Positions 56,701 to 59,700 of a DNA stretch of 64,000 bases are shown piece after piece. Position numbers: made by a program. Positions within the stretch are counted from its first letter, which is position 1; every line of letters begins with the position of its first letter. Location: assembly GCA_047601185.1 (NCBI GenBank), contig JASGJS010000001.1, forward strand, positions 897,118-961,117, written 5' to 3'. This DNA comes from Gammaproteobacteria bacterium. Lineage in GTDB: Bacteria; Pseudomonadota; Gammaproteobacteria; JAURND01.

Positions 56701-59700
56701 TTGTAGTCTAACCTGCCTTGTGGGATGTCATCCTTCGCCGAGTGTGCAAGATAGCGCCGGCCGTCGGATCGAACTGTCAGATTTGCACGGCAAATGGTTG
56801 ATTGTGAATTATTGGGCAGATTGGTGCCATCCGTGCCTCACTGAGCTTCCTGAGTTAAACCGGCTACAAAATCACCATAAAGCAGAATTACAGGTGATTG
56901 GGGTGAATTTTGATCATTTGCCTGCCGCGGATTTACAAGCTTTCGCGCAAAAATTAGGCGTGCAGTTTTCACTGGTGTCAGAATTTCCCAGCGAAGCCTA
57001 CCATTTACCGGCGGTTTCTTCTTTACCGGTGACGTTTGTGATTAATCCTCAAGGAAAGTTGGTGGAAACCTTATATGGACCGCAAACGGAGGAGAGCATT
57101 AGCGGGCTAGCAGCCCGCGCTCCCAAGTCTTGAGCCTTCATGACAAAGAGCTCAAGGGGTAGTTTCTGCCTTCTAAGTTTTATACAGATTGAATGAAAGA
57201 ACTTCAATGTATGGCGATAGTGTTAAGTTGAAGAAAGCTTGAGCCTGGGAGCGCGGGCTGCTAGCCCGCTTCACTTAATGAGAAAAAGACACCGATTTCT
57301 TTTTCTTTTCTTTGCCTTCTTGTTTCTCTTTTTCATCCACCACACAACTTTTAAGAGAACTTTTGGTGGGTATGGGTGTAGAAGGCTTTCTTTCTTTACC
57401 ATCGTGGAAATAAGATGAAAGGTTATTGCTCACTTGGTTTGTAAGAGGCGGCTTTTTAAGATGTTGTTCTAATAGATTTCTTATGGGAGGCTCTTTTTCG
57501 CAAATGTTCTCAAACAGTGCGATAGCTAAAACAGCGTTTGATTTTAATAAACTCAGCGTATGTTGAAAAACAGATTTTAATGATTCGTTAACCTGAGGGG
57601 TATAGTCCCTAGTCTCTTTAGGATTTTGCGATCTGTAAGTGTAAAGCGCAATCATATTGAGGCAAAGCGTTCCCATCGTGTCTAGCTGCGCTTCAGGATT
57701 TTTTTGATAAGCAGCATGCTGTGCGTCTAATAAGCTGAGCATTTTGAAGGTAAGTTTCTCTAAATTGTCGGAGCGTATTTTATTGGCACATTGTAGCACT
57801 TTTAGGGTTAAAGGCGTTTGTGTGAATAAGTCGGTTAATAAGTGTACATTTTGAGGAGGGTTAATGCTGATATGAGGGCTATTAATTAAAAAGTCAGCCA
57901 CCAGCCCAGCAGCGCCGGCGTGAATTAACTCAAAGAGGGCCTCACAAGCGCTAGAAGATGAATCTTTCACGCTTAATTGTTGAAGAATCAATTTACGACA
58001 GTGTTCAAGCAGAGGTTCCATTTTTGAATCATTCACGCACGATTTCCCACTAGTCAAAACGATAGGACAAAATTGCTTATAATAAGTATGGAGTACTTGT
58101 TCTAAATGGGCAGGATCGGCTTGGAAAAGTGTATCGAGAGTCTTTTTATAAAATTTCTCGTCCATAAGATGAGAATCTAGGAGATCACAAATTTCTAGAA
58201 GGGAAGGATTCTCTATATCAGCATACTCTAAAATAAGCGTACTCATTTTTTCAGCGTTTTTTGAGTCTGCAGGCAGCAGAGCTTTTAAAGTGTCAGTCAC
58301 TTGAAAATGGGTTTCTGGCTTGGAGGAGAGGCTTTTCTTGACCTGAGAGAAGCTTCGTGCCATGAATTCATCAGCATCGTCATGATGTTTAAACAGCGCA
58401 AAAGTGGTCATGAGCGATTCCAGTTCCGCAGGATATGTCTTTATTAAATGCTCCAAGCATGCTTTCTTTAGAGAGGTTGTGGGTGATGCTAAAAGAAAAT
58501 CACAAACACTGTGAACATGGCCTTTTGAAATGTAATCTGTCCAAAGCTTGTCTGCGAGATCTATGGCATTAGAATCTCTGGTTTGGTGAGCGAGTTTCAA
58601 TGTGAGTAAGTCTAACGGCGTAGTCCTTAAGTTTTCTTGTAAAAGAAGATTGGTGTCTGCATCAAAATAATTGCGTAATTTAGCATAATGATTTAAGAGT
58701 TGTTGAAAATTTAAAGGAAAATCAAAAAACAGCTTGTGAATCAATAGCTCACTTTCGACATTGCTCTTTTTATGTTTAAGATAGAGTAGCAAGGGAACAC
58801 TCTCACCTTCCAAATAAAGTGTCATGGATTGTGGGTCTTTGAGAGGCTTAAAAATTTTTTTATAATGCTGCTCAAAAGCCTCTAATAAACGCCAATACCT
58901 GGGGTAAATATTTTTGACAGGATCTGCTAACTCCTGTATCTGATGGGCTAATTCAAAGATGCGATTTGGGTACTGTTCAAATAGAATAGAGATTACTTGA
59001 TCTCTCAGTGCTTTTTGCGTTTTGTTGCGATTAAAATAATCACTTTCCCACAATAGCGCAGGTAATAAAATATAATATTGAGTGAAATTCTCGAACTGCA
59101 ATATGACAGCGTTTGCAATATTTTTCGCTAGCGCGCGCGAAGTTTCTTTTGATTCAGACGTTAATAATTCAAATTGTGTGTGAGAATTCTCCTTTAGTGT
59201 ATGAACATTTTGCTCCATGAATTCAAAAGGTGACCATCGCTTCAGCCAAAGCTGATAAAAAAATTGGCAGTTGGCTCTATTTTTTAGGCTTTCTGCATAC
59301 AATGCAATCAGTTTTTCTAAAGCATCACATCGCATTGCGCTGAAGACGCGGGTTGGTTCAGTGGCAGATTCCATGATGCTTGTCACCATAACATCAATCT
59401 GTTTGGCCAATGCTAGGTTTTGATTAGGGTTTTTGTTGGGGCGGGTGCTGAAGTCTAATTTAGCGCTGAGTAGGTGGCCAAAAGCTTCTGGCTGTTGGGC
59501 ATATAATTTTTCTAAAAGTGCAGGGTGATAATGGTAAGTAACTAGTACATTTTGCCACTGTGGAAATTTTAACTGAGTTGTCAAAAAATCAATCAATTGT
59601 GCATCATCTTTAGCGGTCAGTGTTTTGGCCGCGTGGGGATTCTTGATTTGATACAGATTAATGTGGGTCCAGAACGAAGGGTCGGCAGCGATTTCATCGA

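Follow-up and report, generated by a model that had tools for sequence, protein, structure and literature searches.

A copy of a short repeat, here called F1, lies just past codon 141 of a gene for a TlpA-like lipoprotein and very probably supplies both its stop codon and the C-terminus that has replaced the native one. The gene is located in a 64,000-nucleotide stretch of DNA, which was analyzed as a whole and is referred to below as the window. Translation would cross the junction between gene and repeat and, in the one of three frames that is open through the F1 end, would read S-G-L-A-A-R-A-P. Two codons further on, it would meet a TGA in the sub-terminal hairpin of this copy (57101..57270). 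The native residues that close the last alpha-helix of the thioredoxin fold, approximately 7 to 10 in number, would have been exchanged for 10 repeat-coded residues, a tail of similar length.

The TlpA-like lipoprotein

An ORF search confirmed the reading frame at 56669..57133 (+), which a preliminary description of this DNA had given as the coding sequence. Translation probably begins with the ATG at 56678, with the TTG at 56669 as an alternative, giving a coding sequence of 56678..57133 (+) and a protein of 151 amino acids that is identical in sequence to MFT3741999.1 (NCBI). With Pfam, the protein scores 71.4 bits against AhpC-TSA and 45.7 bits against Redoxin (cut-offs, 26 and 26.6, respectively), and the Thioredoxin_8 and Thioredoxin matches exceed their cut-offs as well. 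Comparison with ResA (1st9) yields an E value of 9e-23. The protein has in common with the TlpA/ResA family, including Bacillus subtilis ResA (1st9) and Bradyrhizobium TlpA (1jfu), the thioredoxin fold, the WCxPC motif, and membrane anchoring.

A signal peptide with an L-V-G-C lipobox was read from the sequence at 56678..56728 (+; MKFLLLLICSLTCLVGC). Its ...LTCLVGC end fits the pattern [LVI][ASTVI][GAS]C of a predicted lipobox, and the lipobox cysteine, Cys17 (codon 56726-56728), occupies an invariant column in an alignment of 20 proteins. The active-site motif W-C-H-P-C spans residues 49 to 53 (56822..56836, +), of which W49, C50, and C53 are invariant in the same alignment, as are P117 and T119 in the cis-Pro region. 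In all, 16 of the 16 family-invariant columns are kept, the lipobox cysteine, the CxxC, and the cis-Pro region among them, so the protein is probably still functional.

TlpA and ScoI act in the assembly of the copper center of cytochrome oxidase. Orthologs of the gene adjoin SCO1 and genes for heme a/o synthesis, which fits such a role for the family. The gene studied here differs from the family in two respects: its last 7 to 10 residues are non-homologous, and it lies away from SCO1.

It is unlikely that the gene is a decaying relic that has left its operon, with a repeat-coded tail devoid of functional meaning. The relocated gene has lost the stop and start overlaps that its relatives share with their neighbors, and the end of its terminal helix is replaced. 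No clear Shine-Dalgarno sequence could be read 5' of either start, and the sole promoter-like site found by scanning lies approximately 150 nt upstream, within the neighboring gene. However, the 151-codon ORF is intact with every invariant residue in place, the fold is predicted with confidence (AlphaFold2 model; mean pLDDT, 92.4), the tail is near native length, and tblastn finds no second TlpA-like match in the window.

The junction between gene and repeat

The F1 copy at the TlpA-like gene measures 170 bp (57101..57270) and lies in the minus orientation relative to the copy at 10616..10781. It begins with a 25-nt terminal inverted repeat (57101..57125, +; AGCGGGCTAGCAGCCCGCGCTCCCA), which contains the stem-loop GCGGGCT-AGC-AGCCCGC, and it ends with the perfect inverted partner (57246..57270, -) 120 nt away. 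Its interior aligns with eight other F1 copies, and eleven other ends in the window match its left end at 25 of 25 positions. The start can be placed at 57101 with an uncertainty of 2 nt because many copies share a flanking TT; the repeat had previously been drawn from 57093, which is 8 nt too early.

Codon 142 begins at position 57101, and the sequence reads on in frame as AGC GGG CTA GCA GCC CGC GCT CCC AAG TCT TGA. Ten sense codons (57101..57130, +) encode SGLAARAPKS, residues 142 to 151, followed by the TGA stop at 57131..57133 (+). The protein therefore ends in ...ESISGLAARAPKS, and the tryptic peptide expected to span the junction is LVETLYGPQTEESISGLAAR. According to the preliminary description, the last 11 codons derive from the left inverted repeat. 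All of 57101..57133 indeed lies within F1, as ten sense codons plus the stop. The 25-nt end itself accounts for the first 8 1/3 codons, and positions 57126-57133, with the last codons and the TGA, are sub-terminal.

The stop codon is likewise supplied from inside the F1 copy, as had been proposed, but it lies outside the 25-nt end and is specific to this copy rather than a feature of the family. Of nine further ends of this type, eight have TGC at this position, and their frame-0 tails would run for 15 to 55 amino acids. In the inner hairpin, the partner arm shows a change in step with the TGA (CTTGAGC...GCTCAAG). Selection of the TGA for a shorter tail was considered and rejected, as maintenance of the hairpin accounts for the paired change without any selection on the protein.

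In the AlphaFold2 model, a C-terminal helix made up of residues 138 to 147 spans the junction, and the tail contributed by the repeat is predicted to finish the last helix of the fold. Native tails in the other rows of the alignment influence this prediction of a helical tail.

As RNA, the element folds into one long hairpin, with -90.5 kcal/mol (z = -8.2) for the plus strand and -86.6 kcal/mol (z = -9.2) for the minus strand. Across the window, Rfam gave nothing that reached its gathering thresholds; the only hit near the element, to an lncRNA at E = 0.2, is meaningless. A general terminator function for F1 was unsupported, since no hairpin plus T-run occurs at the element ends and the flanks of most copies are devoid of a U-tract. 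To the right of the element lies a convergent ORF of 1291 amino acids (57275..61150, -), whose stop codon (57275-57277) is 4 nt from the element and for which Pfam gave no family match.

Orthologs and the break in homology

None of 19 orthologous proteins (35 to 53% identity) ends in SGLAARAPKS, and the same holds for 13 genomic loci. Instead, the orthologs end in unrelated tails of 7 to 10 amino acids, such as SLLTAMGLK, with the consensus LLxAMxxK. All comparisons of the TlpA-like protein break at residue 140 or 141: tblastn with the best ortholog stops at 57100, having reached residue 143 of the 150 in that ortholog, phmmer against ResA 1st9 covers residues 19 to 141, and the Pfam Redoxin match covers residues 25 to 140 (profile positions 13 to 140 of 148). 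A native C-terminal helix is not retained in full, as homology ends at this point and the remainder is repeat-coded. These results bear out the earlier claim that the ancestral C-terminus has been replaced. The alignment with orthologs that carry no element had been named there as a check, and it does not uphold a coincidental match.

The idea that SGLAARAPKS is the native C-terminus and matches the repeat by coincidence draws on distant Pseudomonas homologs, which show ...AAGLTARL... near their ends and for which some tblastn alignments reach residue 147. It is refuted by the 25/25 identity with eleven other ends, the inverted partner 120 nt away, and the homologous interior. Moreover, the tails of the closest orthologs are unrelated, and the GL.AR resemblance to Pseudomonas requires a shift of two residues. 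This likeness reflects chance, and the nearer orthologs do not have it.

A protein search and a scan of 185,579 species genomes found no closer TlpA ortholog above 55% identity. Because no relative in any of the searches exceeds 57% identity, the native tail is apparent only through distant orthologs. F1 was absent from 87 of 87 loci of relatives. Two relatives with 78 to 81% identical SucC (L141 and L142) have different neighbors, and F1 is absent there too. Another SucC hit (P0036; 733 bits) was dismissed as a close relative; it has 53% GC, approximately 70% nucleotide identity, and an internally duplicated gene.

The F1 family in the window

Searching for the 25-mer with at most three mismatches gave 23 occurrences in the 64-kb window, compared to 0.00 expected from shuffles. 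These ends make up 11 two-ended F1 copies and one solo end, which together occupy approximately 3% of the window. Nine copies align over their interiors and measure 134 to 171 bp, eight of them 160 to 171 bp. As a unit, F1 is non-coding and approximately 166 to 170 bp long, and a GC-rich stem-loop of 7 bp is present in each of its ends. The seventh stem pair is kept in 23 of 23 ends, either as C-T-AGC-A-G (n = 13) or as C-A-AGC-T-G (n = 10), with T-A exchanged for A-T and never mismatched. F1 probably exists in several hundred copies. The hairpin sequence of its end had no match in the published literature searched.

Based on gene calls at the ORF level, five F1 copies lie between convergent ORFs, six lie between tandem ORFs, and the solo end lies between divergent ORFs. 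In the same calls, 10 of the 11 full copies overlap a stop codon or have one no more than 25 nt away. Five of the roughly nine convergent junctions in the window are occupied by F1. The copy at 10616..10781 sits at the exact center of a perfect 17-nt palindrome that holds the stop codons of both convergent neighbors. This arrangement could mean that F1 inserts at the centers of palindromes, or that its long hairpin drives a template-switching "palindrome extension" that overwrites gene ends. At least two housekeeping genes in the window have C-termini rewritten by F1. A broader reading, which makes F1 a REPIN-like element with a systematic role in reshaping gene ends in an uncultured gammaproteobacterium, appears improbable.

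A clean insertion in a methyltransferase gene

The second rewritten gene encodes a SAM-dependent methyltransferase (2379..3227, +; PF04445), whose product is identical to MFT3741941.1 (NCBI). Its last 15 residues (AGKLPALPDSSHDRA) and TAA stop are read from a composite F1 copy of 375 bp (3179..3553), which carries a nested palindromic insert. In silico removal of 3179..3553 restores ...DVYLNLHWK and a TGA stop that overlaps the ATG of the next gene. The ORF is restored with 0 extra nucleotides removed; removal of 3 extra nucleotides likewise yields a short tail, but there is no direct repeat in the flanks. This case represents a clean F1 insertion without target-site duplication.

The flanks of this copy are syntenic with relatives on both sides, which makes a mis-join unlikely there. 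For the TlpA-like gene, an assembly artifact would mean that the contig was mis-joined within the repeat and that the tail, or the last codons and the stop, came from another copy. The DNA comes from a metagenome-assembled genome, many copies have identical 25-nt ends, and the right flank is non-syntenic with relatives. Yet the contig of 1.71 Mb suggests that repeats were spanned, and the copy is self-consistent in its interior, with a private inner hairpin whose arms pair perfectly, ends of the same variant, and the strong fold given above. These observations, with the syntenic flanks of the methyltransferase copy, render a mis-join very unlikely, and the first 8 repeat-coded codons would stand even if one had occurred inside the element.

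Relocation of the TlpA-like gene

Using the neighbors of the relative L081 as tblastn queries, the ancestral home cluster was located at 5568..10396 (-), with genes for SURF1, a TM-thioredoxin-like protein, COX15, heme O synthase, an extra ORF, and SCO1 (5568..6203, matching Pfam SCO1-SenC). In the relatives L081 to L084, the order is SCO1-TlpA-AcyP, with overlapping stops and starts. The cluster in the window is now without the TlpA and acylphosphatase genes. The TlpA-like gene has moved approximately 50 kb out of the SURF1-COX15-CtaB-SCO1-TlpA-AcyP cluster that its relatives retain.

The preliminary description spoke of an insertion. F1 does sit at the gene's 3' end, but a simple insertion with an intact right flank was rejected for this copy. 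Deleting 57101..57270 with 0 to 4 additional nucleotides gives tails of 27, 48, 1, 26, or 47 amino acids, none of which is ortholog-like, so that a simple insertion is undemonstrated here. Furthermore, what follows the element on its right is not the lost TlpA tail but the end of the unrelated convergent ORF. As the gene has also left its ancestral cluster, simple insertion would be an incomplete history.

Recombination between two F1 copies, or a rearrangement with its breakpoint at the element, may instead have made the present end of the gene, a possibility that we take seriously while favoring it less than our main reading. This would be a variant of the replacement by F1 rather than its opposite, the tail becoming a by-product of genome shuffling, a view we hold equally tentatively. 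It is consistent with the lack of TlpA at the ancestral site, where SCO1 and the downstream genes would flank it, with the failure of element deletion to restore a plausible TlpA tail, and with a right flank formed by the 3' end of an unrelated ORF of no known domain. Twelve copies in 64 kb would also offer ample substrate. In contrast, tblastn found neither the TlpA tail nor an acylphosphatase remnant beside another F1 copy in the window, there is no F1 copy on the 5' side of the TlpA-like gene, and the methyltransferase gene indicates that simple insertion into 3' ends occurs. For replacement of the native end by F1, we infer an order of events, as we do the retained function and the means of mobilization: F1 insertion would have come first, followed by a rearrangement at or near the element.

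Relation of F1 to known repeats

F1 had been called a MITE, and it does share the properties of being small, non-coding, and multi-copy (12 copies in 64 kb) with 25-nt terminal inverted repeats. However, its ends are REP-type hairpins, and no target-site duplication of fixed length was found: the flanks of 11 copies match inconsistently over 0, 1, 2, or 3 nt. The 2-nt matches (TA, GC, and GC) are palindromic. No transposase was noticed among the examined proteins of the 64-kb window. In its hairpin ends and lack of target-site duplication, F1 looks more like a REP doublet (REPIN) than like a classical MITE, the latter being a deletion derivative of a DDE insertion sequence.

The F1 ends form the stem-loop GCGGGC[T/A]-AGC-[A/T]GCCCGC, with complementary stem changes between sub-families, and the eleven two-ended copies are inverted pairs with homologous interiors in the nine that were aligned. 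The copies are extragenic and lie mostly 3' of genes in tandem or convergent arrangement. The unpaired flank is TGGGAGC / GCTCCCA and carries no GTAG or CGTC tag; we take it to resemble only loosely the spacing of GTAG-GA in the Pseudomonas GTAG-1 type. A tblastn search of limited sensitivity, with an approximate E. coli RAYT sequence as query, gave no match either in the window or among 55 metagenome loci. Judged by its translation, an ORF flanked by REP clusters in two loci (L094 and L133) appears to encode the large subunit of exonuclease VII and not a RAYT.

Complementary stem changes also tell REP sub-families apart (PMC3733652). With REP doublets and REPINs, which are mobilized by RAYT (PMC3116915, PMC3337134, PMC3733652), F1 shares such sub-families, the position 3' of genes and between tandem and convergent ones, and the lack of target-site duplication. 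It differs from them in its long spacer (120 bp), which is conserved within the unit, in a GGGAGC flank in place of GTAG/CGTC, and in that no RAYT gene was seen with F1 in 64 kb, given the approximate query.

An effect of this kind is already on record for Coxiella QMITEs and Rickettsia RPEs, and the current understanding is unaltered by the present cases. In Coxiella burnetii, a host-associated gammaproteobacterium, QMITE2 elements are 150 to 190 bp long, contain a REP-type palindrome, and are found for the most part in intergenic regions and 3' UTRs (Wachter et al. 2018, PMC5896051). Among the genes whose 3' ends are overlapped by QMITE1 and QMITE2 are pntAA (42 bp), nagZ (50 bp), and mutT, and QMITE2 provides the last 33 amino acids of EnhC in strain Dugway (PMC5896051). 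This overlap with the 3' ends of functional genes is similar to that of F1. In contrast to the published description of QMITE2, which has 7- to 11-nt direct repeats and an internal GTAG REP (PMC5896051), F1 has no consistent duplication and no GTAG tag. F1 also appears denser, with 12 copies and approximately 3% of the 64-kb window, compared to 0.93% of the Coxiella genome for both QMITE families together (PMC5896051).

Rickettsia RPEs are palindromic repeats of approximately 150 bp that lie within housekeeping coding sequences, with the fold apparently undamaged (PMC10969869). Unlike RPEs, which are in frame and beyond which the native sequence resumes, the TlpA-like ORF has no in-frame continuation past the element; it ends 33 nt into F1, and the native end is lost.

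Here a mobile repeat has taken the place of the last part of a conserved fold element with no visible damage to the protein, and the methyltransferase gene provides an internal replicate in the window. Both tails are public as ordinary proteins (MFT3741999.1 and MFT3741941.1), and lineage-specific C-termini in repeat-rich uncultured genomes should therefore be checked against repeat families. The combination of dense F1 copies and a broken cytochrome-oxidase assembly cluster makes this a reasonable genome for studying the repeats that accompany operon break-up.

A metagenome scan for the 25-nt end returned 55 loci, none with a TlpA relative, and their similarity to the window is confined to the end itself. 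Most have 60 to 70% GC and carry the 25-mer as adjacent REP-like dimers or in intergenic clusters. The end thus recurs, identical in every base, in REP clusters of unrelated 60 to 70% GC bacteria; under the improbable broader reading of F1 given above, it would be the recognition site of one transposase clade, either widely transferred or recurrently evolved.

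The end of the TlpA-like gene

The TlpA-like ORF (56669..57133, + strand), with its likely start at the ATG at 56678, encodes a 151-aa protein that is identical in a protein search to MFT3741999.1, annotated as "TlpA disulfide reductase family protein" in a gammaproteobacterial metagenome-assembled genome, on a contig of 1.71 Mb. Pfam matches above the curated cut-offs include AhpC-TSA, Redoxin, Thioredoxin_8, and Thioredoxin. The N terminus, MKFLLLLICSLTCLVGC, is a signal peptide with a lipobox at its end, and a WCHPC motif is present. When aligned with 19 homologs (35-53% identity), the protein keeps 16 of 16 family-invariant columns, including Cys17, Trp49, Cys50, and Cys53.

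Codon 142 starts at 57101, the first position of a copy of the mobile repeat family F1 (57101..57270), which is bounded by a perfect 25-nt inverted repeat (AGCGGGCTAGCAGCCCGCGCTCCCA; 57101-57125 and 57246-57270). From there, the frame runs AGC GGG CTA GCA GCC CGC GCT CCC AAG TCT TGA (SGLAARAPKS*). Reading frame and perfect ends confirm that the F1 copy encodes the C terminus and stop codon, as the preliminary description had observed. Its span, 57093-57133, overlaps F1 but begins 8 nt too early, and its "last 11 codons" are 10 sense codons and the stop. The origin in the left TIR holds for the first 8 1/3 codons, within the 25-nt end, whereas the TGA and the sense codons just before it are sub-terminal.

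The TGA codon is TGC in eight of nine other F1 ends of the same type, whose frame-0 tails would be 15-55 aa; the stop is not an F1 family feature. Both inner-hairpin arms of this copy are altered together (CTTGAGC...GCTCAAG), a sequence pattern that suggests the hairpin was being maintained, rather than a short tail selected.

Loss of the native C terminus

The homologs read ...LYGPQTxxSLLxAMxxK, ending 7-10 residues past Ser-Leu, and at the same place the TlpA-like protein reads ...LYGPQTEESI, followed by the repeat-coded residues. The best ortholog tblastn alignment stops at 57100, equivalent to ortholog residue 143 of 150. A phmmer search of solved structures matched residues 19-141 to Bacillus subtilis ResA (1st9), with no alignment beyond, and the Pfam Redoxin match extends only to residue 140, which is position 140 in a profile of 148. 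In every comparison, similarity breaks at the F1 junction. MITE-free orthologs with the same C-terminal peptide were found neither among the 19 homologs nor at 13 genomic loci, where all tails are unlike SGLAARAPKS. The breaks in the ortholog alignment, tblastn, phmmer, and Pfam comparisons support the interpretation that repeat-coded sequence replaced the ancestral C terminus. Some Pseudomonas tblastn alignments extend to residue 147, a chance ...GL.AR... likeness that needs a two-residue shift and is absent from closer orthologs.

None of 87 loci from relatives contains F1. The nearest orthologs share 52-57% identity with the protein, the source genome is metagenome-assembled, and an empty site (the gene without F1) was not found in the collections searched.

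An AlphaFold2 model built on the 19-homolog alignment (mean pLDDT, 92.4) has its last helix at residues 138-147, completed by the repeat-coded SGLAAR; the helix over the tail is a prediction, influenced by the native tails of the other aligned sequences. At 10 aa, the tail is near native length, and the protein, as modeled, is probably still functional.

Rearrangement at the TlpA locus

In relatives, the gene order is SURF1, thioredoxin-like membrane protein, COX15, heme O synthase, SCO1, TlpA, and acylphosphatase, with overlapping stops and starts. The cytochrome-oxidase assembly cluster of the window (5568..10396, − strand) is without the TlpA and acylphosphatase genes by tblastn, and the TlpA gene now lies ~50 kb from the SURF1-SCO1 cluster. 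The heme O synthase and SCO1 genes are separated by an extra 325-aa ORF (6203..7180), and a small downstream ORF (5240..5563) is inverted compared to relatives. At its present site, TlpA has a small membrane-protein gene on one side and, on the other, a convergent ORF of 1291 aa (57275..61150, − strand) with a Lys/Glu-rich C terminus and its stop 4 nt from the F1 right end; this ORF has no Pfam match.

When F1 is removed from the TlpA gene along with 0-4 additional nt, the resulting tails are 27, 48, 1, 26, or 47 aa long, none ortholog-like, so the right flank of F1 is not the lost tail. The strand antisense to the 1291-aa ORF is open for 27 codons, which explains the long spurious tail. A plain insertion alone is therefore rejected for TlpA, since the right flank is not the native tail and the gene lies outside the ancestral cluster. 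A rearrangement at or near the F1 copy is part of the gene's history and may reflect insertion followed by recombination between copies, or a breakpoint that F1 happens to occupy. By tblastn, no remnant (TlpA tail or acylphosphatase gene) was found beside any other F1 copy in the window.

A second gene ending in F1

The cleaner case in the same window is a SAM-dependent methyltransferase gene (PF04445; 2379..3227, + strand), whose last 49 nt lie inside the F1 copy at 3179..3553. Similarity to orthologs stops exactly at 3179, and the last 15 aa and the stop come from F1, giving AGKLPALPDSSHDRA* in place of CAYTSKA* or RSFKTNL*; public annotation contains the protein with this tail (MFT3741941.1). 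Exact removal of 3179..3553 yields ...RFDVYLNLHWK*, with a TGA overlapping the ATG (at 3569) of the HAD-type phosphatase gene (ATGA). This restored gene end shows that F1 inserts into gene ends without target-site duplication. Both flanking genes are ordered as in relatives, and a contig mis-join at this copy is unlikely.

The F1 family and its classification

At ≤3 mismatches, the 64-kb window contains 23 occurrences of the F1 25-mer versus none in shuffles, forming 11 two-ended copies and one solo end (44640..44664) in a divergent intergenic region. Nine copies, in two orientations, can be aligned through their interiors (134-171 bp; eight are 160-171 bp), with much higher conservation at the ends. 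Two copies are composite: 3179..3553, in which a second palindrome is nested (arms GGCAGGAGGCGTCGTCC / GGACGACGCCTCCTGCC), and 53638..53949, inside which F1 interior sequence is duplicated in tandem. Each end has a 7-bp stem and a 3-nt loop and is either GCGGGCT-AGC-AGCCCGC or the variant GCGGGCA-AGC-TGCCCGC; the seventh stem pair flips between T-A and A-T and is mismatched in 0 of 23 ends. RNA of the whole copy 57101..57270 is computed to fold into one long hairpin (−90.5 kcal/mol; z = −8.2).

With gene calls other than those tested taken at the ORF level, five of the 11 full copies lie between convergent ORFs, occupying 5 of ~9 such junctions in the window, and six between tandem ORFs; 10 overlap a stop codon or lie within 25 nt of one. 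No consistent target-site duplication was found at F1 copies. This, the complementary variants of the hairpin ends, and the placement resemble REP doublets and REPINs as described, which F1 fits better than a transposon-derived MITE (PMC3733652, PMC3337134). Unlike these, F1 is without a GTAG or CGTC tag, and its spacer is long and conserved. A RAYT gene was not found in the 64-kb window, a weak test. The label "MITE" thus stands for a miniature element but sits poorly with the REPIN-like features and lack of consistent duplication, and F1 is described as a REPIN-like miniature element.

Fifty-five metagenome contigs (L085-L139), mostly of 60-70% GC and a few of 39-43%, carry the exact 25-mer, as adjacent inverted dimers (~7-nt gap, hairpins inward) and tandem intergenic clusters (e.g., L087, 840-897; L085, 8067-8372) rather than the 166-bp element. 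With the window they have no further sequence in common. L140, an unrelated contig of 53% GC, looked like a close relative because an internally duplicated ATP-grasp region in its SucC (3249..4916; 555 aa) inflated the score, and it was rejected as such.

Gene ends from repeats are already documented. Coxiella burnetii genes such as pntAA, mutT, nagZ, and ruvB have 3' ends overlapped by QMITE1 and QMITE2; in strain Dugway, EnhC takes its last 33 residues from QMITE2, a 150-190 bp element with a REP inside, found mainly in 3' UTRs (PMC5896051). A review describes in-frame fusions with intragenic MITEs as "not unusual," citing Rickettsia palindromic elements (PMC10969869). New here are the F1 family, in an unclassified lineage, and the affected protein.

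Sites of individual F1 copies

The copy at 10616..10781 sits at the exact center of a perfect 17-nt palindrome (TGTGATTTTTTATTTTT, element, AAAAATAAAAAATCACA; 10601..10796) that includes the TGA stops of both convergent neighbors, a DUF2909-like ORF and dUTPase; in relatives, this junction is a 19-nt spacer that is not palindromic. The copies at 52570 and 53638 are flanked by AAAAGC and GCTTTT. Insertion at palindrome centers and inverted-repeat extension by template switching are both candidate explanations for such flanks. The copy at 4117..4250 fills a whole convergent junction: it begins 15 nt past the HAD-type gene stop, and its other end abuts codon 4251-4253, the stop of a zinc-type alcohol dehydrogenase gene. 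Another (63662..63827) separates ccmB (62722..63387) from the next co-oriented cytochrome c maturation gene (ccmA, 62111..62722), and thus lies inside a probable operon.
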